Assembly (NCBI GenBank): GCA_964016885.1
Contig: OZ024745.1
Span: 21,204,001 to 21,268,000 of the forward strand
Source of the DNA: Eledone cirrhosa
Lineage: Eukaryota
DNA: 64,000 nucleotides
Reading direction: 5' to 3'
The notes under the pieces are model-generated. The model worked only from the letters and a program-made list of their open reading frames with translations, was not told the DNA's origin and searched no databases. Below are positions 545-52,070 of this stretch, one piece after another (the first letter of the stretch is position 1; every line of letters begins with the position of its first letter). The translations under genes and the position numbers were made by a program.

Positions 545-935
545 TGAAGATAGACATAGAATATTCGAAAATATTCTGTATGTTTATAATAAACATTTTG
601 AAGACCTAATCGCTATAGAATAGAATACGTCACGTATTACAATTAGATTCTCGATAAAAGCAAGCTCTTTCAAACCAGTTCCTGTACACAGCTAAGTATT
701 CTATAAGTCTCTAGCTGTGTCATTCTCGATAAAAGCACTGGATATGTAATCCAGAAGATTTCTAATAAGAATGAAACGCGTAGGTTACTTCCCTTGCTTT
801 TATCGAGAATCTAATTGTAATACGTGACGTATTCTATTCTATAGCGATTAGGTCTTCAAAATGTTTATTATAAACATACAGAATATTTTCGAATATTCTA
901 TGTCTATCTTCACATATATATCGCTATTTCAGAGC
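545..935 (+). mobile_element. Non-autonomous PLE-like cassette with 120-bp inverted repeat and HHR-like motif
   Basis: 545-664 is the reverse complement of 793-912 and the cassette is flanked by (TA)n. The 3' part (ggtcttcaaaatg...atcgctatttcag) recurs on the minus strand at ~38925-39010 and ~53862-53940. Confidence 0.65.
746..788 (+). ncRNA. Hammerhead-like motif, U4A variant or degenerate
   Basis: gtaatc CAGAAGA tttct-aata-agaat GAAA CGCG TA ggttac. Stem I gtaatc/ggttac, palindromic stem III; core differs from CUGANGA at position 4. Confidence 0.6.
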
Positions 936-1073: not shown

Positions 1074-2853
1074 CACCGTGTAACATTTTTTTGTTCCCCG
1101 GTTCTAAGTGTCATTTCATGGTTTGTTATATCCCGTAATGCACTGGGTAATTGCTGGCCTTGTGCCTAAAGTAGAAACAATTATTATAAAAAACACTATT
1201 ATTTAATCAGAAGTTTGGGTTTGTGGTCAGGAGTTTGATATTTCGAAATTTTCATATTTTTCAAGAGAAAACGCATTTTTTTAAAATTAATCAGTTCATG
1301 TAATTAAATCAACAGAGTATATATTTATTTTATTACACAAGCTTATCAAAAGCAAACAAGTAAAAACAAATAACACTTATAAAGAAACTTATTCACGTCA
1401 GAAATGACTGGATTTTCTGGATTTGCGGTTATAGTCCAGGTCGCATTCCTGCACTAGGCCCCAGATATAGTTCCCCATCATTTTTTCATTGTAGTGGCCC
1501 TGGTACCTCCGCTCTATCTCTTTCACATCTTGTTGGAATCGTTCGCCTTGTTCTTCTGAGTAGGCGCCCATATTGTCCTTTAATTTTTCCAGGTGAGCGT
1601 CCAGCATATGGAGTTTAAGCGACATCCTGCATCCCATGGCGCCAAAAGCCTTTATCAGATCCTGCACCAGTTGCTGGTAGTTTTCAGCTCTGTTGTTGCC
1701 CATGAAGCCCTTAACAACTGCCTTGAAACAGTTCCATGCTGTTCTCTCAATCCTATTTAACTTATTGGAGAACTGGGTAAACTCAAACACCTTCTTTATC
1801 TGAGGTCCAACAAAAATTCCACCTTTGATTTTGGCCTCAGATAACTTGGGGAAGAACTCAAGAAGGTACTTAAAAGCGGCTGATTCTTGGTTGAGAGCCT
1901 TCACAAACTGCTTCATCAACCCCAACTTAATGTGCAGAGGTGGCATGAGCACAATCCTGGGATCAACCAATGGCTCCCACATGACGTTTCGGGTCCCAAC
2001 TACAAATTCTGTTCGCTGCCCCCAGTTCTTTCTTTTGTAGTGGCCAGAGGTGGCTCTGCTGTCCCAAAGGCAGAGGAAGCATTGGAATTTGATAAAGCCT
2101 CCTTGGATTCCAAGCAGGAAAGCCACCATCTTGAAGCCTCCAATGATTTTCCAATTGTACTGGTTGTATTGCAGAGCTTCCAAGAGGACTTTCACACTGT
2201 AGTAATCTTCCTTCAGGCAGACTGAATGAGCTAGGGGCAGTGTTGGGAACTTGTTTCCATTGTGGAGGACAGCCTTCAAACTTGTGGTGGAGCTGTCTAT
2301 AAATAGCCGCCACTCCTTGGGCACAAACGGCACCCCAATAATGTCAAACAGTCCAGGCACGTCATGGCAGAAGCAGAGGCCATCCCTAAGAGTGTAAAAG
2401 CCTGAAAAAGGTTCGTGTCGACTTCTCTGACTTGTCACCTGCACTTGCTCCTTGACCAAGTTCCACCTCTTCATCCTGGAGACGAATGCTTAAAACACAA
2501 CTTACCCTTTATTCAGGGTGCGAAAATCCAGTATCAATAAATCTCTTTAATCCACTTTTTAACAATTTTATACTTTATTGCACTTTTATAATTTTCTTTA
2601 GGTATTACTCTTTATTTTATAATTTTAATTTAACCTGAAACATATATTAAAAAATCATTTAACATAAGCAAATTAAACTTACATACAACGTAAAATGCAG
2701 CATACAAATAATTCTAGTGAATAGCTTAGAATGTTTACAAACCCAAACTTTTAACTGTTTAATAGCACTTTATTATTTATTTGGGACCTAAGCAACACAA
2801 AAAAAGTGATTACAAGCCAGGAACAGAGAAAACAAATTTTTCGTTACACAGTG
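1074..2853 (-). mobile_element. Chapaev3-like (CMC/Transib-related) DNA transposon, internally deleted
   Basis: Termini CACCGTGTAAC (1074) and revcomp CACTGTGTAAC (2843-2853). Subterminal inverted motif aagtttgggtttgt (~1211) / acaaacccaaactt (~2737). Encloses a transposase-like ORF. No clean TSD seen. Confidence 0.65.
1398..2474 (-). pseudogene. DDE transposase core (Chapaev3-like), N-terminally truncated, probable catalytic D>G
   Basis: Motifs WRLFIDSS, CFLCLWDSRA, PPLHIKLGLMKQFVKAL, GPQI, SLKLHMLDAHL, SEEQGERF, RYQG. The expected GD(L/F)K reads GGFK. Confidence 0.75.
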
Positions 2854-3469
2854 TTATGTTTACCGCCAGCCTGACATGCTAATGTATATCGACTAGTCTT
2901 ACTGAATAATTAGCAGGAATTGGTTCTGCAGGCTCATATAGCATGGTTGATTATTAGAGAAGCATATATGTGAATACGTGTGCAGCTGGTGCACGACTCG
3001 ACAGAATATATTTCCGAGTGGCATATCGTCATTGTTATCATCTTGGAAAGATAACAACTGGATACATCATATTTCAAAGATCTTACATATTCAATCCACG
3101 TACAGTAATACACACACACACACACAATCTCTTATTTTCTCTCTCCCTCTCTCTTTATCTCTCTCTATCTCTCTCTCTTTCTATCTATCTATCTCTATCT
3201 ATCTATCACTCTCTCTCTCTCTCTCACATATATATATACACACATGTATATATATAATATATATATATATGCGTGTGTGTGTGTGTGTGTGTGTTTTGTG
3301 CGTTGTGTGTGTGTGTGTATACTTCGTTTTATTTTATTTGTTTTGCAAGATTTCTTATCTTCGGGTGGGTCATGTTACCAATAAAAACTCACGCACCTGT
3401 TGTTTTCATTTAAATTTATAAAAAATTTCCGGTTGGTTGGTTTAATAACAGGGTGGTTGTTTATTTATT

Positions 3470-3512
3470 GCCAAATCTCTTTCGCCGCACATTCTGTGAC
3501 ATCCTCAGTGAC
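3470..3512 (-). ncRNA. Degenerate hammerhead-like motif
   Basis: gtca CTGAGGA tgtcacagaatgtgcggc GAAA gagatt tggc AATAAA. Stem I gtca/tggc; stem III mismatched. Confidence 0.45.
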
Positions 3513-5185: not shown

Positions 5186-5289
5186 ATATATATATATATA
5201 TATATACGTTATTCCGGGTTGAATCGGAGGTAACCACAGTAAGTAAGGTACTCAATACATAGCAGAGTATAAAAGTTTTAATATAGATG

Positions 5290-5340
5290 AGATTCTACAG
5301 GACTAGAACTGTTTCATTCATTAGAAATCATCAGGAATCT
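5290..5340 (-). ncRNA. Type I hammerhead ribozyme
   Basis: Reverse complement of 5781-5831. Confidence 0.8.
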
Positions 5341-5780
5341 GGGTATCAAAAAATAAAAATGGTATTTATAGGTCTCTCGAAGATAATTGTAAGATATGCA
5401 CTCAGTATTTTGAATCTGTCTACAGAATTCTCTAAACCTTTGTCACTTAGTTGAACCTTAATGATTTTAGCTTTTAAAGAATCTCCCTTTTCTTTAATTC
5501 TATCGACCATGACTGACCCCCCACTGATCTTATAGACATCTGTTAGCTTAAGATAAACTTAATGACAAGGAATGGTATGCCATCCGGAACCTGTTTATAG
5601 AATTCTGTCTGCCCTTGTTACTCTAAAAACATAAATAAATAAAAATAAACTATAGCTTTGTAGAATTAGCTTTTAATGAATTCCCTTTTCTATCAACCAA
5701 TGACCTACACCCATCCCACTCCCCACCCTCTCCTACCACTTGTAGAGACCTATAAATACCATTTTTATTTTTTGATACCC

Positions 5781-5831
5781 AGATTCCTGATGATTTCTAA
5801 TGAATGAAACAGTTCTAGTCCTGTAGAATCT
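5781..5831 (+). ncRNA. Type I hammerhead ribozyme
   Basis: agattc CTGATGA tttc-taat-gaat GAAA cag-ttctagtc-ctg TA gaatct. 6-bp stem I, intact core, GUA cleavage triplet. Confidence 0.85.
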
Positions 5832-5843
5832 CATCTATATTAA

Positions 5844-5944
<101 letters not shown>

Positions 5945-6055
5945 TTGAAAAAAATGAAAACGAAATTTCATTTCTCACTCTTAGTATGGCACTTACTTAA
6001 ATGTAAGTATGTATGTATACGTACATACATATATGTATACAGACGTAAAGTAGCA

Positions 6056-6093
<38 letters not shown>

Positions 6094-6260
6094 TATACAT
6101 ATATACATACAGGTACACATACATATATGCACGCATCAGTTTAGCGGACGCTTATTATAACGCCGCTTTGTTCGTTTGTAAACAAACTGAACAGCCTGAA
6201 TTTATGCCATACGGTGTTAAGGCAACCACGTCACCTTTTTGTTCAACACTGACACAGGAA

Positions 6261-6301
6261 CGATGTACTAGTTTCAAGCTTGTTAGCTATCATCAGCACC
6301 G
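6261..6301 (-). ncRNA. Type I hammerhead ribozyme, retrozyme unit 1
   Basis: cggtg CTGATGA t-agct-aaca-agct-t GAAA CTAG TA catcg. Stem I cggtg/catcg, palindromic ACTAGT stem III. Confidence 0.88.
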
Positions 6302-6724
6302 CATACCCATCTGCAAGATAGTTGAACGTTCGAAAGTATATACTTTCCTTATGAAAATTAACGGCTGAGCAGCCTAATTTGCATATTGAGTGAGTTAAAT
6401 CGATCAGGCGTACCGAAAACGATAAGTTGAAAAAAATGAAAACGAAATTTCATTTCTCACTCTTAGTATGGCACTTACTTAAATGTAAGTATGTATGTAT
6501 ACGTACATACATATATGTATACAGACGTACAGTAGCATGCATATATATATATATATATATACATATATACATACAGGTACACATACATATATGCACGCAT
6601 CAGTTTAGTGGACGCTTATTATAACGCCGCTTTGTTCGTTTGTAAACAAACTGAACAGCCTGAATTTATGCCATACGGTGTTAAGGCATCCACGTCACCT
6701 TTTTGTTTAACACTGACACAGGAA

Positions 6725-6765
6725 CGATGTACTAGTTTCAAGCTTGTTAGCTATCATCAGCACCG
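6725..6765 (-). ncRNA. Type I hammerhead ribozyme, retrozyme unit 2
   Basis: Same sequence as 6261-6301, 464 nt apart. Confidence 0.88.
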
Positions 6766-7001
6766 CATACCCATCTGCCAGATAGTTGAACGTTCGAAAG
6801 TATATACTTTCCTTATGAAAATTAACCGCTGAGCAGCCTAATTTGCATATTGAGTGAGTTAAATCGGTCAGGCATACCGAAAACGATAAGTTGAAAAAAA
6901 TGAAAACGAAATTTCATTTCTCACTCTTAGTATGGCACTTACTTAAATGTAAGTATGTATGTATGCGTACATACATATATGTATACAGACGTACAGTAGC
7001 A

Positions 7002-7089
<88 letters not shown>

Positions 7090-7362
7090 TATACATATAT
7101 ACATACAGGTACACATACATATATGCACGCATCAGTTTAGCGGACGCTTATTATAACGCCGCTTTGTTCGTTTGTAAACAAACTGAACAGCCTGAAATTA
7201 TATATGCATGCTACTGTACGTATGTATACATATATGTATGTACGTATACATACATACTTACATTTAAGTAAGTGCCATACTAAGAGTGAGAAATGAAATT
7301 TCGTTTTCATTTTTTTTCAACTTATCGTTTTCGGTATGCCTGAACGATTTAACTCACTCAAT

Positions 7363-7370
7363 ATGCAAAT
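7363..7370 (+). promoter_or_regulatory. Octamer motif ATGCAAAT upstream of HHR (also 6377-6384, 6841-6848, 25051-25058, 25084-25091, 25664-25671 on minus; 47895-47902 on plus)
   Basis: Exact ATGCAAAT on the HHR-sense strand about 80 nt 5' of the ribozyme in every complete retrozyme-like unit. Function is inferred only. Confidence 0.4.
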
Positions 7371-7445
7371 TAGGCTGCTCAGCCGTTAATTTTCATAAGG
7401 AAAGTATATACTTTCGAACGTTCAACTATCTTGCAGATGGGTATG

Positions 7446-7486
7446 CGGTGCTGATGATAGCTAACAAGCTTGAAACTAGTACATCG
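7446..7486 (+). ncRNA. Type I hammerhead ribozyme, inverted retrozyme unit
   Basis: cggtgCTGATGAtagctaacaagcttGAAActagTAcatcg on the plus strand. Confidence 0.88.
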
Positions 7487-7653
7487 TTCCTGTGTCAGTG
7501 TTGAACAAAAAGGTGACGTGGTTGCCTTAACACCGTATGGCATAAATTCAGGCTGTTCAGTTTGTTTACAAACGAACAAAGCGGCGTTATAATAAGCGTC
7601 CGCTAAACTGATTCGTGCATATATGTATGTGTACCTGTATGTATATATGTATA

Positions 7654-7707
<54 letters not shown>

Positions 7708-7755
7708 TGCTACTGTACGTCTGTATACATATATGTATGTACGTATACATACATA

Positions 7756-7831
<76 letters not shown>

Positions 7832-11589: not shown

Positions 11590-14500
11590 TATCCCTACCA
11601 GCAAAACAAACACCAACACCACCCCAAACACAAATGCCCACCATAAAAGAAAACTACAAAATGAACAACAAACCAAAGCAACACAACAAAAAAACGAACA
11701 ACAATACATACACATTAACACAAACAACAAAAACCTAATGGAGGTCATCTCCCAAGAGCCCAAAGTAGAAACTGAGGGGAAAACTTTTGTCAAGGCAGAC
11801 TCTCAACCACACCTAAAACTGATAAGGGTCTCGATAGAAACCTATCAGAAATTAAAAGACCAATTTTCGCAGGTTTTGGCAACCCCTGTCAAATGCCCAT
11901 TAACCGCGTCCTATTAAAATGTTTCCCCACCCCACTCAACACCCACACCAGCACCCAAATAGAGATTGAACAACCCGATCTCCAGGAAACGAAAAGGTAA
12001 GTGCATCTTTTCTTCCTTTTCCGCCAACTCTTCTCCACCAGCATGGCTAATTTACGAGTTGGAAGTGTGAATGTGCGTGGCCTAGGGATGCCCTGGAAAC
12101 AGGGCCAACTTTTTTAAACGACCTTAGGTAACACGGTATGGATGTGATAGCCATCACCGAGTTCAGGATCCACAACAGGCAGCAACTAACCTCCATCTTC
12201 AATGACTTTGAGATCTACGCATCTTTCTATCAGCCAGGAGATGGAGGAGGAGTGGCTTCATATTTCGGAAAAACCTGGACCTCGAAATACAGCAAGTACA
12301 CTTGGACCCGGGGGGTAGACTGGTAGTCCTAGACGTGAACAGTGTCGGAGGTGGAGCCTTCAGATTGGTGGCCGTTTATGCCCCGACTGGGCAATCGCGG
12401 TCAGACATCTTTAAGCGTCTAGAGCCTTTTCTGGGAACGCCTCGCTCCTTGATTTAGTGGGGGACTGGAATGGTATCCTAGACGCACGATGGGACTATGT
12501 AGGAGCATATCCCAGTAGAGGGGGGTGCAACAACCTCAAAATTTTAATCGGCCAATTACAACTGGCCGATAGATATCGACTAGATTTCCCGACTCCACCA
12601 CAGTGGACGTGGGCAAATCGCAGCGGGACATCTAGATCGTATTTAGATAGGTTCTTTGTTACAGAGAGAAACAAGAAGATGTTAAGCTGTCCACAAATGT
12701 ACATGGTTGCCTATTCAGACCACGAACTAGTCACCTGCATAGTCAACCATGATAGAATACATAGACAAGGACCCGGATGCTGAAAGCTGAACGTGTCGCT
12801 ACCGACACGTAAAGCCTACAATGAACGGATAAGTAGATTAGTTAAGCAACAGTTGACGGGAGCCATCGTCAACGATAGATGGTGGTACTCTCTCAAGAGA
12901 GCAATTAGAGTAGAGTCGATAGCTTTTAGCAAAGAACTAGCCTTAGAGAAAAACAAAACAGAAACAGAACTAATAGCCAAGGTAGATGAGGCGCTTAGGA
13001 GTGGCAACGCAGCTAGAGTGCTAGCAACGGGAACGGCACTGAACCAGTTTTTCGATGCGAAACATGAAGGCTGCGTCGTCAGAAGTAAATCACTTGCTCT
13101 AGGAAACGAGGGAGCAAAACCTGTAAACTGGACCCGAGCGACAGAGGCGAATAGTGGCAACAAGTCCACGATTCGGTCTTTGAAAGACTAAAACGGACGA
13201 GTGCTACTTGACACCATGCGGATGTGCACAGCCTTTCAGCGGCACTTTGTGCAACTGTTCGAGCAGAGCGACGTTGCGCCGAACGGGGTAATGGACTTCG
13301 GTTGATACCTCGACGGCCTGCGGCGTCACTCGAGCATGAGTTTTACATAGTCATGCCGGACTTGTTCTCTGGTGACCTCGGAGCCGTCTACTGCAACTGG
13401 CAGCAGAACGGGAGAATTACCAGTTCTGCAGGAACAAGGGGGACGAACTAAGCAGCTTTAGGCCCATAACTCTGCTCAACACAGAGTTAAAGATTTTGGC
13501 CAAGGTGTTAGCAACGAGGCTGGCGCTTGTCGTCGAGAACCTGGTAGGGAAAGCGCAAAAGTGTGCAATCCCGACCAGGTCCATACACGACAACCTCCAC
13601 CCCATGCGATACATCATAGAGAGGGTTGGGTGTAAACACAGCTTCGGTGGGGCTCTGATCAATTTAGATCAGTCTAAGGCGTTCGATATGGTCGGCCATC
13701 GATACTTGGAAGGGGTTCTCAAGGCGGCCGGTTTCGAACCCGTCTTCAGAGGCTGGATCGCTGTAATTCACACCAACGTCTGCTCGACGGTCAAGGTGAA
13801 CGGCTACCTATCGGAGCCGTTCGCAATCACGTGTTCCATCCAACAGGGATGCCCTCTCTCCTCCATTCTGTACGTACTGACTCTAGAGCCACTACAGCGA
13901 AAGTTGGAACTTCTGCAGGGCATCCCGTTGGAACCGGCATTGCGGAAAACGGCGTCGGCTTATGCCGACGACGTGACAGTAATGGTGTGGGAAACCTCGG
14001 AAATCGGGGCAATCGGCAACTTACTGCAGGAATACGAAAGGCTCACGGGAGCAAAACTGAACCCGGACAAGCCTGTCGGTTTGCAACTCGGAACGTGGAG
14101 AGGCAAACCGATGCCGTCCAACAGCGTCGTCGGACGCTGTACGGACAGATCGGTGAAATTGCTCCGGGTCTGGTTAGGTCCTGACCTCCAGGTGGAGAAA
14201 GACTGGAACGAGGTCACGGCCAAGGTATTTGCGCTCACCCAGAAGTGAGCAGAGTGCAAACTATCCTTGAAAAGTCGAGCGGAGGTGGCGAACACTTTCA
14301 TAGAGTCCGTCATTTACTACCGCTTGACCGTCGTGCCTTGTCCCCGTGAATACCTCACCAAGATGGAACGCATGCCCTTCCAGTTCCTTTGGAAGAAGCA
14401 GGCCCCACTGGTGAAGAGATCCGTCTTCTGTCAGCACCCTTCCAACGGATGGCTGGGAATGCCGTGGCTGGTGATGCGCAAACACTCGCTGAGGCTACGG

Positions 14501-15537
14501 CATCTCCATGTATTCCTCACCGAACAACCGGTGTGGACGCCGTTTGTGAGACAGGCCTTCCCGCAACTTATCTCACTGACGGAGCTGCAGTCCTGGTGGG
14601 AGCCTGGCACATTGAATACGCTCAGGCACTCACAGTTCTTTTTCAAGCGGGCACGGCAATCAGTGGAGACTCCTCTTCGACATTCTATAGAGGGTTAGTA
14701 CGTTACAAGTGCTATGACGCGCTCGGAGAGACTCTGGGCGTCGAAGACGACGATCTCACCAGTCTGTTCGGTAAGACTTTCCGCCCGGGACGAATGAACA
14801 ACTTCCAGATGTCCCTATCCTAGCAGTGCAACCGAAGAACTCTAACAGTTCGAGACAAGATCTACAGGCACGGCAGAGATCCTTCCAAGAGGACGTGTCC
14901 AAGATGCGCGCAGGACATTGAAACAGTCCTGCACGCAATTGTACACTGCCCGGGCGTAACCGACCTGTGGAACTACGCAGAACAACTGCTGTCACATATG
15001 GGACAATCCAGTTGACTGCCGAGTCGATAGTAAGGATCAAACCACCAACTTCTTTCAAAAACGAAAGAGAGGCGGTTTTCCTCTGTATAGTGGCTATGGT
15101 AAAAGAGACGAGACTTGAGAGAACTGAGGACAAATGCCTTTCTCTCCGGACAACAACTCATTCCCTTCTTTAGGTACCACTTTAGAAGGAGAATCAGAGT
15201 GGGGAGAGAGGCACTGCACCCCAGTAAATTTACTGAAAAGTGGGTGAATGTAGCAAAAATGGCCCGAGTGATTGGGCCTTCTATGTATATAAACCCGTAG
15301 GTTGAAGATGAGAGCAAAAGGAAGAAAGGAGCACTTGCACAACACGCTCCAGGAGTTGAGGATTGTTCTATCTACGGGGTATAAAACAACCCATTTGTAA
15401 CGCCTCCCCCTATTGGTGATTTCGATTGTTGAATTTGTTTGTTTAAACATTTTTTTTACACGATTGTATGTAAAATCCCCAGCATATGTCCTTGTATTGT
15501 CCCCTTTTCTTGTGCGCCCTTGTGGCAAATAAAGAAC
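11590..15537 (+). mobile_element. Tx1/L1-clade LINE, 5'-truncated, decayed
   Basis: ORF1 remnant followed by ORF2. Ends at aataaagaac running into (TATC)n; both flanks are (TATC)/(TC)n. Confidence 0.85.
12043..15300 (+). pseudogene. ORF2: AP endonuclease - reverse transcriptase - CCHC zinc finger, disrupted
   Basis: MANLRVGSVNVRGL, GDWNG, SYLDRF, SDH (APE). RPITLLN..KILAK, LDQSKAFD, QGCPLS, AYADDV (RT). CPRC...ETVLHAIVHC. Several stops, frameshifts and deletions near 13330-13430. Confidence 0.9.
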
Positions 15538-21029: not shown

Positions 21030-22109
21030 TCACACTTTTCGTGTTCTAACAGATATACATAATCAGATGTTACGGTGGGTTACAGGGTAAAGCTGACAGA
21101 GAGGGCAGATATAACACAGTCGTTCTGGGAGTGAGGGTAGATATGTGTTGATGATGCTAATGATGTTAATGATTGTTGAAGTATGGAGATGTATCTAGTG
21201 GTGGCGGAGATGGTGTGTGCGACAGTATACTTACAGGATCGAATTTTGCGAGGGGTTGTAGGTTAAGGCAAACAGGGGAACATGAGGGAATAAGGTTGCG
21301 GGTGTGGGATGGTAGACATGTAGCGATATGTGCGGCGGTGGTGGTGGTTGCGGCGATGGGGTGATATGATCGATATTATATTTACAGGATCAGATGTTAC
21401 TATAGATTACAAGGTAAAACCTGACAGAGAGGACAGATCGAACACAATGTTACAAAGATGAGGGGTGTATGGCGATGTGATTTTTGGTGGGGCTGATGTA
21501 TGCGGCATGATATACAAACTATGGGCTTACAAATGGTTACATGCAATAAAATAAATTCACTGAGATGAGGGATGGTGAGACGGGGCAAAAGTGGTTATTA
21601 TTATGTTGGGTCATGGTTAGTGTGCGGCCCTCCGCCGAATGTTTGTGCAGAAAATGTGTTCGGCCTGGTGTGTCTGCAATTGATAATTATGTTCGACCTA
21701 TAGTTTATGGCAGATTTTAATTTAATTATCTCTGCCGCCTCGGCCAGGCATAACCTGCAGTGGTTTCTGTCACTGGGGAGTTGCGCCACGCGTCTTTGAC
21801 TGACCATATGATCTGGATTCGATGTTCCTGTCCTTGAGGTCCCAGATCAAATCGGCCAGTCTAGTTTGGGATCGTTTCAGCCTATGTTTAAAGGAGCTGC
21901 TATGGTTATACCAGCGCTCCTTAAACGCAGTGGAAGTTGCACCTATATATGAGTACTCTTTATTGCCAGCTGTGACATCGCACCGGTAAACAAGGTTTTT
22001 AACGAGGCACTCCCCGTTTAGTGGGCATTCAGCCCGTTTTTTGCAGTTGCAATTGGGTGTTACCGGTGTGGTGGCATGCTGTGTGGAGCTGGCATGTGGG
22101 TTGTTGTGT

Positions 22110-22112
<3 letters not shown>
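21030..22112 (-). mobile_element. Penelope-like element fragment (Hydra-type linker + GIY-YIG), 5'-truncated at (TA)n
   Basis: 21640-22075 minus translates as CNCKKRAECPLNGECLVKNLVYRC...YIGATSTAFKERWYNHSSSF...LIWDLKD...(frameshift)...CRLCLAEAAEI...NCRH. Confidence 0.85.
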
Positions 22113-22169
<57 letters not shown>

Positions 22170-22960
22170 AAATATATATATAATACGAATAAATAAGGAA
22201 AATATGTTTATTCAAAAATATAGACCAGCATTAAATATAGTCAACACCATAACATGCTAACCATCCAAACAGACACATACATACACACACACATAACACC
22301 CATACACACACAAATCCCTCCCCCATTTCTACTAATAGAATCATCTTCCTACACACGCACACACACACACCAGCAAACAAGCATATATATCTCTACTTTC
22401 TTTATTTCAATAGAAAGTCTGAATTTTGACACGCCAGCACAATAGCCATATTCACCGAACCAGAACAATTCTCCCCATCCCGTTTTTCTTGACCATTATC
22501 ATTTGTTTGGCACAAAATTCTCTAAAAAGGCTACAAAACAAATTCCAAAATACGGGCGCGAAATTTAATGTACTTGTTCACTTGACAGTCATAATTTCAT
22601 TTATAACCAATCAAATTACATTTATAAAAAAAATCCTTTGTGAGCCACCTTTTTTTAAGTAAAAAGAAATTCAAACACAAACTGGCGCGAAAGCTGATGT
22701 GCTTATTCACCTGACTGCATCAACCAACCAAACTTCACTCATATATGAAAAAACAACCTGCGCACCTCCCTTTTTTTTTGAAGGCAAAAATAATAAGAAC
22801 TTTGTAACGCGAACTGGCGCGAAATTTATTATACTTATTCACCAACCAAATCACTTTTTTAAAAAGCTGGCATTTCGAGGCACTTTTTTCCATATAAAAC
22901 AGAAGTAACATTCAAACACCAACCAGATGTGAGAAAAGCCACAAACCCTCCTCAACTCTA

Positions 22961-24730: not shown

Positions 24731-24924
24731 ATATATATGACCGACAGGTGTCACTATTTACCTTTCCTTTGTAGAAATCTATTTTACTCTTAAATGTAAT
24801 CTGAGTTTTTCAAATATTAATGATATTATTTGATTCGTCCGCAATTATGCAAACAGCCTCTTTTTTAAATACATGTCAGTAGAAAGAGCCCCTCCTTCTC
24901 GCTCTTGTGTTGGCATGCAAACAG

Positions 24925-24973
24925 AACTGCAGACACTAATGTTTCTGGGTGATTACCCTTCGTCAGTGCAGTT
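24925..24973 (-). ncRNA. Type I hammerhead ribozyme
   Basis: aactgca CTGACGA a-gggt-aatc-accc-a GAAA ca-ttag-tg TC tgcagtt. 7-bp stem I, GUC triplet. Confidence 0.9.
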
Positions 24974-25224
24974 TCCTGCTTACTTGGCATCTGTCAGAGC
25001 TAATGAAAATATATGATATTTTCTGAAATATACAGTTACAGATCGGTTTGATTTGCATATTAGCAGATCCACTGATCAGCCTGATTTGCATATCAGCAGA
25101 TAGGCCTGTCAGTTTCCTGTATACGAGCGAGAAATGGCCGGCTTTGCCACATTCAAATAAAAAAAATAAAATTTCGCTCTACATGGCTGAATACAATAAA
25201 TGTAATCTGAGTTTTTCGAATATA

Positions 25225-25420
25225 AATAATTGTTTCTACTTTAGGCACAAGGCCAGCAATTATCCAGTGCATTACTGGTACTTTATTTTATCGACCCTGT
25301 AAGGATGAAAGGCAAAGTCAACCTCGGCGGAATTTGAACTCAGATCGTAAAGGGACGTAACTATGCTGGAAAGCATGGCGTCCGACCCTCTACCGATACT
25401 GCCAATCCACCGCCCTTCCC
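25225..25420 (-). mobile_element. Full-length Nin-domain-like tRNA SINE with TSD
   Basis: A box TGGCAGTATCGG, B box GAGTTCAAAT, core gcctttcatccttacagggtcgataaaataaagtacc; TSD ttttcgaatataaataat. Confidence 0.85.
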
Positions 25421-25540
25421 TTTTCGAATATAAATAATAACATTCGATTCGTTTTAATATATGCAATCAGCCTCATTTTTTAAGCCATGTCAGTAGAATG
25501 AACCCTTCATTCTTGCTCTTGTGTTGGCATGTAAACAGAA

Positions 25541-25584
25541 CTGCAGGCACTAATGTTTCTGGGTATAACCCTTTATCAGTACAG
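25541..25584 (-). ncRNA. Mutated hammerhead (G8A, U16.1C)
   Basis: ctgta CTGATAA agggttataccca GAAA cattagtg CC tgcag. Confidence 0.6.
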
Positions 25585-25802
25585 CTCACTGTTCACCTTC
25601 CAACTGTCAGAGCTGGTGAAAATATATGCTATTTTCGAAAATATACAATGACTGATCGGCCTGATTTGCATATTAGCAGACTGGTCAGTCAGTTTCCTGT
25701 ATGCGAGCGATAAATAGCCGGCTTTGCCAAATACAAATAAAAAAGAAAATGTTCGCTCTACATGGCTGAATACAATAAATGTAATCTGAGTTTTTCGGAT
25801 AT

Positions 25803-25994
25803 TAATAATTGTTTCTGCTTTTGGCACAAGGCAAGCAAATACCCAGTGTATTACTGGTACTTTATTGTATCGACCCCGTAAGGATGAAAGGCAAAGTTAA
25901 CCTCGGCGGGATTTGAACTCAGATCATAAAGGGACGTAACTCTATGCTTCAAAGCATGATGTCCGACTCTCTACCGATACTGCCAATCCACCAA
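25803..25994 (-). mobile_element. Nin-domain-like tRNA SINE with TSD
   Basis: Same family; TSD ttttcg(g/a)atattaataat. Confidence 0.85.
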
Positions 25995-26178
25995 TTTTCG
26001 AATATTAATAATAACATTCGATTCGTTTGCAATTATGCAAACAAGCCTCAATTTTTAAGCCATGTCAGTACATTGAGCCCCTCATTCTTGCTCTTGTGTT
26101 TACACATTAATATTGAGTGCTTTTTTAATCAACGATTGAATGTATTTGGTATGATTATACATAAAACACTTTTATGCG

Positions 26179-38469: not shown

Positions 38470-39075
38470 GCCTGGGACCGGGGTTATTTCCCTTGCCGGA
38501 ATTAGCACGTGATAATTATAGATTCGATTAGCAGCTTATTGCAGCAACATATAATTTATCACTTCCATCCCAGGAAGAACGATAAACCTGTTGAAAAATT
38601 GAATCCAACGTTCGGTCATCAATTGCCAGGAGCTTGCCTTACAAGTAAGTCGGATATTTGATTTTGGATTCAGAGAAACACTTTAAACGTCTATTCGTCT
38701 AATTTGTCTTAAACGTCTATTCGTCTAATTTGTCCAGGTGTACTTTTTCTCAACCTGATTAGTGCTATCGTTGCTCTGGTATACATATTGTGTGTTATTT
38801 TAGCCTACCACAATGTTCGATTTGTCAAGCTTTTTAAACGTATGTTATTACTCTAAGGACCTATCTTATCGAGTGCTTTGCTAACTCATCATTTCATATA
38901 AGTAGGCCGAATTCACTTGCAAACCACTTGAAATAGCGATGTATATATGAATGTATATATAGTGTATTTGGCAATATACTGTATGCTTAATTAAAAGCAT
39001 TTTGAAGACCTTACGCTCTTGTTTTAAAGTAGTGATTATGTCACTTACTTCTTTTTTCAACAAACAAAGGGAGAT

Positions 39076-39121
39076 AAGCTGGCAGATCTCTGCTTCATAC
39101 TGTTGGTATTCCTCAGAGCTT
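39076..39121 (-). ncRNA. Hammerhead variant with G15.1-C16.1
   Basis: aagct CTGAGGA atac-caaca-gtat GAAG cag-agat-ctg CC agctt; all three stems pair. Confidence 0.65.
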
Positions 39122-39996
39122 AGCACGCCCATTGTCTGTTGAAAATTATGAATGTTGGATTCTTATAGAATTCCACTAATAATCAGGAACTGATTATACA
39201 GAGCGGTTGCCGGTCCAGCAAAAATTGAAGTTTTGTATTGTGTGAGAGTTCATCAATGACGGTTCTAGCAAATCTTCCTCTACTGCATCTCCTCTGAGTT
39301 GCTCCCCACAATACTAGCTTGTGTATGGAAATATGTAATATTCATTGGATATATAGATTAGATAAAAGACGAACATTTTCATTAAAATACTTTTTGTAAA
39401 GATTTCATTCTAGATCATTATGACATGGTTTTTCCACCAAATTTCATTAGATTTAATTGGAATTCTAAACTGTCACAAGTACACTACTCTGCCCACACAT
39501 ACGCACTTAACTAAACACATGTGTACAGACCATATTCTGTCTCTTGAGGCTACAACACGCAAATACACGTGCAGCTGCGTTCTTGTACATTGTTTTCATT
39601 GAATGAAATGCATACGTTCCATTCTACCTATTTGCACCGTTTATTTAATAGTATTTCTTTTTCTACTATGTTAAGTTCATCATGTGTTATTGCTCCCATT
39701 GTGTTTCTTTTTCATTTTCTCTCTGCTGTTTCTTAACGAAGTACCACAACCAAAAACAATAGTGTAAAATAACCTATCCGGCATTTCTATTTCTGGAAAT
39801 CTTGGTATTTCTTTATCTTCACTGATGCGGAGCCCAACGGGTTACACTGTATTGAATATTATCTCCCTTTATCTCTCTCTCTTTATATATATATATAGTG
39901 GTAGAACACTGGAACGTAATATCCGTAGTGGTAGAGCACTCAGTCCATGGGACGAGTTAGGTAGAAGTGGTTACACAACAGTTAGTTCACCATACC

Positions 39997-47762: not shown

Positions 47763-47789
47763 GCATATTACATATATATATAATATTGT

Positions 47790-48115
47790 TATTTATATAA
47801 CTATGGCAAAGCCGGCCATTAATCGCTCGTATACATAAAACAGACGGGCTTATCTGCTAATATGCAGATATGGCTGATCAGGCACTCTGCTAATATGCAA
47901 ATCAGGCTGATCAGTCACTGTATATTCCAGTAAATATATATTTTCACTAGCTCTGACAGTTGGCAGGTAAACAGTATACGGTACTGATGAAGGGTAATCA
48001 CCGAGAAACATTAGTGTCTGCCGATCTGTTTATATGCCAACACAAGAATGACGAGGTTGTTCTACTCACATGACTTAAGAGACTGTTTGCATAATGGCAG
48101 ACGAATCGAATATTA
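47790..48115 (+). mobile_element. Solo unit of retrozyme-like subfamily 2
   Basis: Reverse-complement homolog of the 24792-25200 unit, with octamer and HHR. Confidence 0.8.
47979..48023 (+). ncRNA. Type I hammerhead ribozyme
   Basis: cggta CTGATGA ag-ggt-aatc-acc-ga GAAA ca-ttag-tg TC tgccg. Confidence 0.85.
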
Positions 48116-48799
48116 TTAGTGTGTGTGTGTGGGGGGGGGGGTATGTGTGCATGACGGTCGTGTCTAGTGGGTAACATATAGCGAAATAACACATATGACA
48201 TATGTGTATGTGTGGAATAGTTTAGCAGAATAGGAATGGGGCTGGAATAATACGGATTGATAATAGTGAACGGTAAGGAAGAAATGGAGGATAATTAAGG
48301 GATTAAGACATTTATTGGGAATAGTTAACATTATATAGGAAAGAGGAGTGGTGGTGGTGGTGGTAGTGGTAGTGGTGGTGGTGGTGGTGGTAATGGTGGT
48401 GGTGGTGGTGGTGGTGGTGGTGGTGGTGGTGGTGGTAGTGGTGGTGGTAGAGGTGGTGGTGGTGGTGGTGGTGGTGGTGGTGGTGGTGGTGGTGGTGGTG
48501 GTGGTGGTGGTAGTGGTGGTGGTGGTGGTGGTGGTGGTGGTAGTGGTGGTGGTGGTGGTGGTGGTTGGTTGGTTGGCTGCGAAATTATTGGTGATGAAAA
48601 AAGAGATATTGAAGTGGTGGAGAGAAAGAGAGTGAGAGAGATGGGGTCTGAGTTGTAACACTATCATTACACGAAATGAGCGTGTGTGTGTGTGTGTGTG
48701 TGTGCTTGTGTGTGTGTGTGTATGTGTGTGCGTGAGTGCGTGTGCGTGTGCGTGTGTGTGTGTGCTTGTACCTGTATGTGTTTTTGCAAGCACGCTTAG

Positions 48800-48973: not shown

Positions 48974-49100
48974 ATGTATATATATATATATATATATAAC
49001 GATATTAACAAATGGAAACTATATTTATAAAACCATATTTATTTCATTATACATATTTCAAGAAAACAAATTATACAATTTTTTAATTACCTTAATCTAA

Positions 49101-50179
49101 AAGTAGAAATAGAGAATAACCATAAAATAGTCAATTTTCTAGATGTAACACTAAATCTTAACATATGTCTTCATTATCCATTTCACAAACTAAATGAGAA
49201 CTTAAAGTATGTCAATTTTAACTCTAATCACCCCAGCTCCGTTAAAAATACTATAGTGAACTCTGTACAAGAACGAATTTCGAGAATTTCAGCTAATCAG
49301 AATATATTTGATGAAAAAGTACATTATTACAACGAAGCGTTAGGTAGAGCTGGGTATAGAAATAAAATTAAATACATCGATAATAATAATAATATAACAA
49401 CTAACCATAATCGTAACAATTTTAATTATGGTAACAGTTTTAACAACTATAATAGAAAACCTTACATTAATTCCGAAAGCCGAAAAAGAAATAGAACTAG
49501 GAACATATTATGGTTCGCTCCTCCTTTCTCATTAAATATTAAAACACCTATTGCTAAACTATTTTTTAAAGCTCTTGACAAATGCTTCCCTAGAACACAT
49601 AGATATTACTCAATTTTTAATAGACATACTATAAAATTAACTTATTCTTCCACAAAAAATTTAGCGCAAAATATTAATAGAATTAATAATAGAAATTTAA
49701 AACCTAACCAAAATACCAATAATAACCCAAGCAATATTCAATCTGATAAATGTAACTGTAGAAATAAATCTAACTGTCCGTTAAATAACAATTGCTTAGC
49801 TAAAAATATAGTATATAATTGTAATGTAAAAACCAATTTAAATTCATTTAATTATGTGGGATCTACCTCCACAGAGTTTAAATCCCGCTTCAATAATCAT
49901 AAAAATTCTTTTACAGATCCAAACGAAAAATTTTCAACCTCTCTATCTAGCCTATTATGGGACCTAAAACTAGAGAACGTTGAATATTCGTTGATTTGGA
50001 ATATTATTTCAAAAGCTACTCCTTTTAACTCCTCTTCAGAAAATTGCGATCTTTGTATAGAGGAAATATTCTTTATATTAAAGACCAAAAATTCCCTGAA
50101 CTTAAGGAATAATTTATTCAGTTGCTGCAGTCATAGATTAAACTCGACGTTTAAATATACATATAAATTTAAAATGTAG
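49101..50179 (+). pseudogene. PLE ORF C-terminal part: RT thumb, CxCx5Cx5C linker, GIY-YIG endonuclease
   Basis: VNFLDVTLNLN...YVNFNSNHP...ERISRIS...ILWFAPPFS...CNCRNKSNCPLNNNCLAKNIVYNC...YVGSTSTEFKSRFNNH...LWDLK...CDLCIEE...CCSHR. Frame open from ~49101 to the stop; 5' part missing. Confidence 0.9.
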
Positions 50180-50410
50180 TATATAATTAATTAATTAATT
50201 TTATTAATATATGAAACCTGTCGATAAATCATTAGATTCCTTCATCTTTTTTGACTGATTAAACACTTTTCTTCCTAAATATAAATAAATATAAATATAA
50301 TAAACTATTCTAGAAAGGAGCTCTTGAAAGGAGAAAATATTTCCTATTTCTTATTTTTATTTTTTTGTTTTTTATTTTTGTTTTTTTATTTTTGTATTTT
50401 GTATTTTTTT

Positions 50411-50465
<55 letters not shown>

Positions 50466-51697
50466 TTTTTTTTTTAATTTATTTTATTTATTTATTTTTT
50501 TTTTTTTTATTATTGTTCTGATAGCTTCTATTTTCGAAAGTTTATCCTTTCAATATTTTGAGTTAAATATACGTAAGATAAATTTCTATACTAAATCTAT
50601 TAAACGCTATTATTTTGAAATTATAACTTAAAATATTCTATAATATTTTAAAATTGTATTGCTTTTAAAGTTATATTGCTATAATTATATTTCCAAATTG
50701 TAATATAATCCTTTTGTATTTTATGTACTCAATTATACTATGTACTGTATTGATGTATACTTCTCTCTATATGTGAGTATATATGTATATGTGTATATTG
50801 ACATACATGTACATATGTTCTATGCGTTTTTATGAATATATGTCTGTCTGTATGTATGTGTATGCGTGATGCGTATCTAAGGGTACACACACATGTATAT
50901 ATATGTATATGTGAGAATTATATTTGTGCATGCGCGTGTATATCCATACAATTTGATTGCACGTATGTATAGTGTTTATCCCAATGATTCCTGACAGATA
51001 AACATATTATTAACAGCCATAAATACATAACAGGTAGTCTTATTTAATAACATAAAGTGTGTATAACATTAAATTAAAGAATCCTTTATGCTTTGTGTAT
51101 ATATATTATATACGTAGTTAGATATGGTATGTATTTTATAAGTGTGTATATATATTTATATGTATTTTTGCGTGTGTGTACGTGTTATATGATATGTAGT
51201 TCTCTAGCAATATATGGACTTCTTAATGTATAGATCCCAATTTTTAATATATTGATCTCAATTTTTAAATGATTAACTGATCATATTTAAACAATGATTA
51301 ATTTCTCATATTATATATGTATATTCCATTCATGATTATTAACATTTCTAATTTTATTTATTCATTTCATCTCAATTGTTAAGTTAACTCAACAAGATAT
51401 GACTTAGAGTTTTCGTCCTCTCCCCTTCTCTCTATCTCCTCTCTCTATCTATATCTTTCTCTCTCTGTTGTTTTGGTATCTCTCTCTCTTTTCTCTCTTT
51501 TTTTCTTTCTTTCTCTCTTTTTTCTCTCTCTCCTTCTTTTTCTTTCTCTATAAACCAACGGCTTATTTTAAAAATAAAAATATCCAATACTAATAATAAT
51601 ATAAGTAAACAACTCCACTATCCGGGAGCTTCCAACAGTAATAGTTGCATTTTTTAAGGGTATGTCAATATTTATTTATAAAACTGATCTATATTAT

Positions 51698-51760
51698 ATT
51701 TTGTCTGATGAAAGCACACCATAATTTAACTTGGTGTCCTTGAAATATGTATAATGAAAT
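51698..51760 (+). ncRNA. Type I hammerhead ribozyme in PLE pLTR
   Basis: attttgt CTGATGA aag-cacacca...tggtgtc-ctt GAAA T ATGT A TA atgaaat, overlapping AATAAA. Confidence 0.8.
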
Positions 51761-51885
51761 AAATATGGTTTTATAAATATAGTTTCCATTTGTTAATATC
51801 GTATGTTTACTCCAAATACTTGTTGAGTGCTTTATATCAGTTATAAAAATATTTGCTTGTTGTATCCCAACAATTTAAATAGAAC

Positions 51886-52070
<185 letters not shown>

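Follow-up and report, generated by a model that had tools for sequence, protein, structure and literature searches.

A probable, decaying hammerhead retrozyme array with putative U6-type promoters in Eledone cirrhosa

Introduction

Non-LTR retrozymes of metazoans are described as ORF-less, AT-rich tandem units of 170–400 nt with a type I hammerhead, which occur as monomers to multimers in thousands of copies, are predicted to form self-paired circles and reside in genomes that contain Penelope elements (Cervera & de la Peña 2020, PMC7229834; Li et al., bioRxiv 10.64898/2026.07.22.740005). The repeats of Eledone cirrhosa analysed here share these traits, but they carry a U6-type box and a TATA element, whereas the two published accounts, as far as they go, contain no cephalopod case and no promoter. 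A search of the literature found neither a cephalopod retrozyme nor a U6-type retrozyme promoter, and the supplements of hammerhead surveys may list octopus. Sequence criteria for the class are given in PMC7229834, PMC4209133 and bioRxiv 10.64898/2026.07.22.740005.

Several related systems resemble the Eledone repeats in part. The axolotl families HHR_Amex1 and HHR_Amex2 likewise form a pair with unequal helix III strength and a mismatch at the base of helix II; there the U·U mismatch goes with the stronger helix III, whereas in Eledone U·U is found with the weak helix III of one family (A) and A·A with the stronger one of the other (B) (PMC7229834). Newt satellite 2 is also a tandem hammerhead repeat with an snRNA-type promoter inside the unit and dimer-assisted cleavage, the latter being proposed here for Eledone, but its transcription is reported to depend on Pol II, whereas the match described below is to host Pol III type-3 genes and not to U1/U2 (PMC2220036, PMC6765202, PMC6155905). 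In Schistosoma Sm-alpha, transcribed by Pol III, the promoter precedes the ribozyme and tandem copies keep the promoter in their RNA, an arrangement to which we liken the Eledone repeats from their sequence (PMC6765202). Hammerheads of Penelope pseudo-LTRs (pLTRs) share two 3′ end sites, inverted 5′ arms, microsatellite targets and a palindromic helix III, but they are minimal, have a helix II of 7–8 bp and flank an RT-endonuclease ORF, whereas here helix II is short and no ORF is present (PMC4209133, PMC8557442, PMC11167929). Finally, the pDo500 repeats of Dolichopoda cave crickets show compensatory changes in helices I and II around a more conserved core; they were compared across species, and ours are compared across families in one genome (PMC2837043). 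Covariation and the two-family pattern are therefore already precedented, in cricket and axolotl respectively. The class as a whole is known with close precedents, and the probable U6-type promoter is what is new.

Results

The window, i.e. the whole stretch of DNA that was analysed, comprises 64,000 nucleotides (GenBank assembly GCA_964016885.1, contig OZ024745.1, positions 21,204,001 to 21,268,000) of a microsatellite-rich genome of 3.0 Gb. Its positions 24791–26102 hold, on the minus strand, a type I hammerhead repeat array of family B which is interrupted by two independent SINE insertions. Along that strand the order is a 5′-truncated piece, a SINE, unit 2, a SINE, and unit 1 with the 3′ end. 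The features are as follows.

24791–26102, minus strand: family B array, whole
24791–25230, minus strand: unit 1, period 406 bp, promoter block duplicated (33 bp); its 3′ end is the proximal family end site
24908–24992, minus strand: extended type I hammerhead of unit 1, core 24932–24966, GUC site, predicted cut 3′ of 24932
25005–25015, minus strand: TATA-like element of unit 1
25048–25092, minus strand: U6-type box of unit 1 in two copies, an intact duplicate (25081–25092) and a degenerate proximal copy (25048–25059)
25159–25171, minus strand: T4+T8 run of unit 1, resembling a Pol III terminator and coinciding with the distal 3′ end site of the family
25231–25420, minus strand: SINE, presumably tRNA-type, with an 18-bp target duplication (25213–25230 / 25421–25438)
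25421–25809, minus strand: unit 2, about 371 bp without SINE, from a subfamily cluster other than that of unit 1
25546–25579, minus strand: hammerhead core of unit 2, likely dead (G8 to A at 25574, U16.1 to C at 25547)
25618–25672, minus strand: putative U6-type promoter of unit 2, with box 25661–25672, TATA-like element 25618–25628 and predicted +1 near 25596
25810–25994, minus strand: second SINE, of another subtype, at the same unit site as the first
25995–26102, minus strand: partial unit, 5′-truncated, starting about 20 nt 3′ of the cleavage site
47785–48118, plus strand: solo family B unit of subfamily B-II, core 47984–48018 with G·G in helix II
within 47785–48118, plus strand: box 47894–47905 (duplicate 47861–47872) and TATA-like element 47935–47945 of the solo unit
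5940–7201, minus strand: family A direct arm, 464-bp period, cores 6266–6296 and 6730–6760
within 5940–7201, minus strand: boxes 6374–6385 and 6838–6849, TATA elements 6336–6343 and 6800–6807
7199–7758, plus strand: family A inverted arm, box 7362–7373, TATA element 7404–7411, core 7451–7481

The first-pass annotation of this DNA had described the array as units of about 406 bp. This length applies to one unit (24791–25196, 406 bp), the extra length of which is the internal 33-bp duplication, but not to the second, which measures about 371 bp plus a SINE. Units 1 and 2 are adjacent, yet they diverge by 17.6% and fall into different clusters, and therefore they probably represent separate insertions; Penelope enzymes are able to target their own repeat (PMC11167929). 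All three B copies of the window carry a private lesion. Unit 2 (core at 25579) combines G8 to A with GUC to GCC, in unit 1 (core at 24966) the U at the opening of the helix I internal loop is replaced by G, and the solo copy (47984) deviates from the majority of its subfamily by the G·G in helix II. At the lesions of units 1 and 2 the other base is found in about 97–99% of contig depth in three contig runs.

Both SINEs of the array occupy the same preferred site. All 25 SINEs flanked on both sides by a B unit are located at one unit site, for example in loci L006, L007, L008, L010, L014, L028 and L066; a SINE is present at 17 of 108 B junctions, and the insertions are independent. The SINE at 25231–25420, which we read as tRNA-type from its A and B boxes, is flanked by an 18-bp target duplication carrying the private base of the unit on both sides. 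The SINE as a part carried along with the unit was rejected, as 5′ ends and subtypes differ and divergence is 0.077 within and 0.084 between loci. In one A unit (L106) a SINE occupies an apparently equivalent site.

Units of 260 nt or more, 95 of B and 133 of A, were taken from the 210 sampled loci and clustered on the columns outside the ribozyme. The solo unit, annotated previously at 47790–48115, indeed belongs to family B. The proposed relationship between A and B was corroborated by alignment, in which each of the three B units exceeded all 500 dinucleotide shuffles (z 5.5, 8.5 and 8.2). Outside the hammerhead core this similarity is significant upstream (z 4.5–7.3) but not reliably so downstream (z 0.8–2.8), and with ribozyme, box and TATA masked the summed z was 1.6–4.0 across six A–B comparisons. 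Beyond the ribozyme and one promoter block the likeness of A and B is weak. With a global identity of about 50–55% they are sister families, for which the earlier term subfamily is too close; what had been called one old, diversified non-autonomous family is thus better described as related non-autonomous families, of which B is the older. Best matches are 79–93% identical for B compared to 94–99% for young A, and family A consists of this one young lineage and an older one. A units within a locus differ by 0.017 (101 pairs) and between loci by 0.038 (3,994 pairs).

Both families are abundant and dispersed over many contigs. A 23-nt block shared by A and B has 8,613 exact matches in the genome as compared to none for the reversed control, and 97 of 100 among the matches listed are A-type; for family B, first-look candidates, which are not copy numbers, amount to 2,862–3,494. 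Unit periods are 371–406 (B) and 464 (A), two same-strand cores occur in 9 of 83 B loci, and A forms long arrays. Two more hammerhead families, E (period of about 324 bp) and the A-like F, were observed in L168 (minus strand, offset 1230), L165:1113(+) and L241:281(+), one F copy being located inside a U1 gene array locus.

The CUGANGA...GAAA cores are located at 24932–24966(−), 25546–25579(−) and 47984–48018(+) in B and at 6266–6296(−), 6730–6760(−) and 7451–7481(+) in A. Every helix quoted in the first-pass annotation was found in the sequence. The geometry is that of a type I hammerhead with a 6-bp helix I, a 3×1 internal loop and a long distal helix, a palindromic helix III, and a helix II made of a mismatch and 3 bp with a U...A loop. 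Two elements had escaped the earlier account, namely the extension of helix I, which spans about 20 bp or more and includes the 3×1 internal loop, and the mismatch at the base of helix II, which is U·U in A and A·A in B, with G–C in the relative F. The usual 10.1–11.1 pair, mostly G–C, is thus absent from A and B. The motif elements CUGANGA, GAAA and UH are present in two of the three B copies of the window and not in unit 2, and an intact core motif was found in 63 of 95 full-length B units as compared to 123 of 133 A units. A search against Rfam detected no hammerhead in 24780–26130 at E ≤ 10, nor any among the 150 of 190 matches listed for the whole window. Whole units folded as circles lie far below shuffled sequences (z −7.2, −6.7 and −3.2).

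The helices had been claimed to remain paired despite sequence change, and this holds between lineages: 44 of 45 helix cells are paired across five A and B lineages (shuffle mean 36.4; 1/20,000) and 61 of 63 across seven lineages of A, B, E and F (shuffle mean 45.1; 0/20,000), where the shuffles ignore relatedness and E and F were obtained with a finder that requires pairing. Within B the signal is modest and carried essentially by one pair. Among 81 copies, one per locus, 94.0% of cells are paired; 20 cells show two-sided change as compared to 7.9 in shuffles (0/500), but just 3 of 27 pairs show it as compared to 4.4 (450 of 500 shuffles match), and a single pair, the only one in B with two-sided change at the level of lineages, holds 18 of the 20 cells. 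In A (71 copies, 51 distinct) 96.8% of cells are paired, with 21 two-sided cells as compared to 8.2 in shuffles. RNAalifold without a given structure returned for the 81 B copies an unrelated fold of −0.55 kcal/mol and did not recover the hammerhead. The covariance model suggested earlier as a check was built from B and finds A cores at 26–32 bits, but it provides no test of homology since microsatellite hairpins score 23–30 bits. Within B, variation is lower in the core (0.033) and in helix III (0.031) than across the remaining unit (0.056), which is not the case for helices I and II; this indicates selection on source lineages followed by decay of the copies. Selection thus acted on the source lineages, and inserted B copies decay.

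Other elements of the window include a further hammerhead-like family with a long helix I and no U6-type box (727–805, plus strand; 39055–39144, minus strand), whose copy at 727 begins helix II with U·U and lies inside a 129-bp inverted duplication (536–664 / 793–921); a U1/U2-type promoter for this family (39116 and 727–805) was not supported. CUGANGA...GAAA motifs are also present at 5274–5377, 5744–5847, 38033(−), 38132(−), 38151(+), 9432(−) and 8633(−), several of them in inverted pairs as is typical of Penelope terminal repeats. A broken LINE-type element with an RVT_1 domain occupies 12415–14823 (plus strand), and 1398–2489 (minus strand) holds a 363-aa ORF without Pfam match, possibly a transposase.

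The best-conserved block shared by A and B outside the ribozyme contains ATGCAAAT, which we take to be an octamer motif and which the first-pass annotation had not recognised as a promoter. For comparison, host genes for U2, U1, U6, RNase MRP and U6atac were retrieved. Three distinct U6 genes, MRP and the best U6atac gene carry TATG(C/G)(A/T)AAT(T/G)AG at −77 to −79 and TATA at −30. These five promoters, judged genuine, were used to build a box-plus-TATA matrix, other U6 and U6atac matches having been set aside by eye as they lack the box at this position and are mostly retrocopy-like or SINE-interrupted. The host promoters score 22–26 bits in leave-one-out runs. On the ribozyme strand of the repeats the matrix gave 24.9 bits for A, 18.7–21.8 bits for three B units and, owing to the degenerate proximal box, 14.4 bits for unit 1; antisense scores in the repeats reached at most 13.1 bits, nine U1/U2 promoters scored 5.3–11.5 bits, and one of 354,350 background sites reached at least 20 bits.

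Box and TATA are located about 90–102 nt ahead of the core in each unit. The two further hammerhead families have the box at −101/−102 (26.6 and 21.3 bits), and its distance from TATA and ribozyme is fixed in four families; the other 32 non-A/B hammerhead-like matches score at most 10.8 bits in a blind hammerhead scan of all loci, where one diverged A copy was listed outside A and B. In A and B, TATA at −30 places the predicted start about 17 nt ahead of the core, so that the RNA would begin with a complete ribozyme. In young A (25 loci), box and core vary by 0.003 as compared to 0.023 elsewhere; conservation of the box has p values of 0.011 in young A, 0.061 (borderline) in old A and 0.22 in B (0.046 vs 0.056). 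The predicted promoter also differs in position from that of Schistosoma Sm-alpha, which is tRNA-type and internal, whereas in the Eledone repeats a gene-external type 3 promoter is predicted. Taken as a match between sequences, the box may well be a working promoter, and we favour this reading to a modest degree.

In the main alternative the repeat is still this retrozyme, but its box is vestigial or a site for POU factors in general, and the unit-length RNA originates from Pol II (snRNA-type) or from host read-through. T-runs 220–350 nt after the predicted start in A and B-I, together with T4 runs in the next promoter, agree with this, since Pol III should often stop before completing a unit, but in part of the B-II units no T4 run occurs within 410 nt. 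Box and TATA are 42–45 nt apart in the repeats and 46–48 nt in host genes, i.e. 2–5 nt closer, which also agrees with this alternative. Against it stands the fixed distance of the box from a TATA and from the ribozyme in four families. Family B has GATCAGTCACT, which resembles a U1/U2 element (7.3–10.7 bits alone), and transcription of the Pol II snRNA type is reported for newt satellite 2. Host U1/U2 promoters lack the U6-type box and have TCAGT at −57, AATTAAA near −90 and TATA-like tracts, the last being another point of agreement, but the composite, two-part U1/U2 model gave at most 5.7 for A and B as compared to 11.7–24.9 for host U1/U2, and a promoter of this type was not supported for either family. 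We consider this alternative possible but clearly the less probable one. T-depletion of the part predicted to be transcribed is weak (P 0.04 and 0.20), and the outermost predicted helix reaches upstream of the predicted start. An octamer at −225 with a PSE at −55 relative to the SINE hotspot was likewise rejected, as host U1/U2 have no octamer there. A distal element similar to ATTACCTCCCTT is common to host U1, U2 and U6 promoters near −260 (L211–L250, L253–L255), and many 5′-truncated U6 retrocopies, several fused 3′ to the 5′ end of a SINE, were seen in L268–L279.

The first-pass annotation had further suggested that family B may cleave as a monomer while family A requires a dimer. This split is unsupported, given that helix III of B is fully self-complementary (10/10), that B has A·A at the base of helix II and that all window copies carry lesions. 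In nearest-neighbour calculations the lowest-energy fold of both families is an inactive rod in which CUGA is paired with the helix III strand. The active monomer lies 5.6–6.2 kcal/mol above this minimum in four of five non-window B copies and 8.7 in the fifth, 2.9–6.8 in window B copies and 7.5–7.6 in A. That B mostly lies nearer its minimum, that its helix III has 3 bp and a tetraloop and its site is GUC, and that coral and mussel monomers do cleave (PMC7229834) speaks for the split; but in B too the swapped dimer is more stable than the active monomer, by 4.5 kcal/mol per copy as compared to 6.7 in A, in an energy model that leaves out tertiary contacts. Furthermore, U·U is a known natural variant reported as the best-tolerated 10.1–11.1 mispair, and the A·A of family B is not mentioned in that account, which does include an Aedes example with a self-complementary helix III as in B (PMC3088659). 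The axolotl family with the stronger helix III and U·U at the base of helix II (monomer 22% vs 6%) cleaved far better as a dimer (PMC7229834). Monomer cleavage in B and dimer cleavage in A therefore appears unlikely as a strict division, and from the modelled energies we would expect a graded difference between the families and no switch.

The ends of the repeats are informative about their spread. Enough flanking sequence was available at 108 B junctions; the repeat carries on at 38 of them and terminates at 70, in 65 cases in a microsatellite. The ends lie in (TA)n at two sites about 40 bp apart (33 proximal, 29 at 30–59 nt further), matching the Penelope "tail" with two starts (PMC11167929; PMC8557442), which makes them a Penelope signature. 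An inverted arm is present in 39 of 83 B loci, and in B the 5′ ends are spread over the unit and do not cluster at the cleavage site, the first 20 nt holding 8 of 116; the corresponding run for family A is confounded by microsatellite matches. Where A arms terminate, they mostly do so in (TA)n a few bases beyond a T-run, as would be expected if priming occurred internally on a circular or longer RNA and not at a Pol III end. The (TA)n ends at two sites and the inverted 5′ arms are those of Penelope-mobilised sequences and thus identify the repeat as a non-LTR retrozyme. Mobilisation by Penelope is in our view likely.

Penelope-type ORFs of one family are very abundant in the genome (89,690 candidates). 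Among 30 loci of this one sampled ORF family, 28 of which were without A/B sequence, no autonomous element with an A or B unit at its end was found; the family has its own long-helix-II hammerhead and a 3′ region unrelated to A/B. In the window, a 5′-truncated Penelope-type ORF (381 aa) is followed by a long 3′ region and a long-helix-II hammerhead at 51705 (49031–51890, plus strand). The ORF at 49031–50179 was ruled out as parent of A and B, its 3′ region having no match to either. A fuller copy gave no significant Pfam family and no significant PDB match, so that its putative Penelope label derives from motifs and layout; homologues carry PF26215, the named ones being from Argonauta and Octopus. 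Another Penelope-type fragment is present at 21770–22207(−).

Another possible origin of the units is as solo pseudo-LTRs that remained after an as yet undetected autonomous Penelope element had inserted in 5′-truncated form. This would account for the (TA)n targets, the inversions and the ends of Penelope type, and vertebrate retrozymes are described as related to pLTRs (bioRxiv 10.64898/2026.07.22.740005). In addition, at L100:1617–1867 (minus strand) a Penelope-type ORF is joined directly, in the same orientation and without microsatellite, to a 5′-truncated A unit, a junction that represents an insertion or a template switch. But ORF-less arrays reach about 15 units, any match to a Penelope-type ORF is confined to 9 of 173 A/B loci in mixed orientations, and the local Penelope hammerheads have a long helix II and no box, which together render this origin improbable. 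Spread as a satellite-like repeat at the DNA level, with a ribozyme that is host-selected or irrelevant, would fit the internal homogeneity of tandem arrays but is very hard to reconcile with copies dispersed on many contigs, with their fixed 3′ ends, random 5′ truncation and inversions, and with the decay of inserted B copies, which have core lesions in 32 of 95 units.

Discussion

ORF-less tandem units with a hammerhead, a high and dispersed copy number and the presence of Penelope elements in the same genome leave us with little doubt that the repeat is a retrozyme. Judged from its sequence, the array at 24791–26102 is probably a decaying family B non-LTR retrozyme array with a U6-type promoter in each unit, copied by Penelope-like enzymes.

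A life cycle in five steps would be compatible with this reading. The promoter of one unit would start an RNA at the 5′ foot of the ribozyme, some 17 nt before the core, and read-through into the next unit would yield multimers that carry the otherwise external promoter inside the RNA. Slow self-cleavage, probably aided by dimer formation, would release unit-length RNA, which may circularise. A Penelope RT/endonuclease would then nick (TA)n DNA and start internally at either of two sites about 40 nt apart, leaving tandem, 5′-truncated and often inverted arrays. Descendants would arise only from source copies with working helices, core and promoter, which would explain compensation between lineages and decay within them.

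It is an even question whether at least four retrozyme families captured the gene-external U6-type Pol III promoter of the host and carry it in their own RNA by means of tandem arrangement and a hammerhead that bears a mismatch and is deliberately slow. What matters here is the match to promoters, as covariation alone would weigh little; with a U6-type promoter placed at a constant distance from the ribozyme, a precise start site and a polymerase can be predicted. If real, it would be a third solution to the problem of keeping a promoter, after those of the newt (Pol II snRNA-type) and the schistosome (Pol III). Animal retrozymes are reported to be unusually highly and widely transcribed, in an account that names no promoter (PMC7229834), and such a capture would explain constitutive retrozyme expression. 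The type-3 promoter consensus for an octopod-like host is useful for the expression of guide RNAs. For the genome of Eledone, the capture would mean that a retroelement propagates a type-3 promoter and has seeded thousands of U6-like promoters genome-wide.
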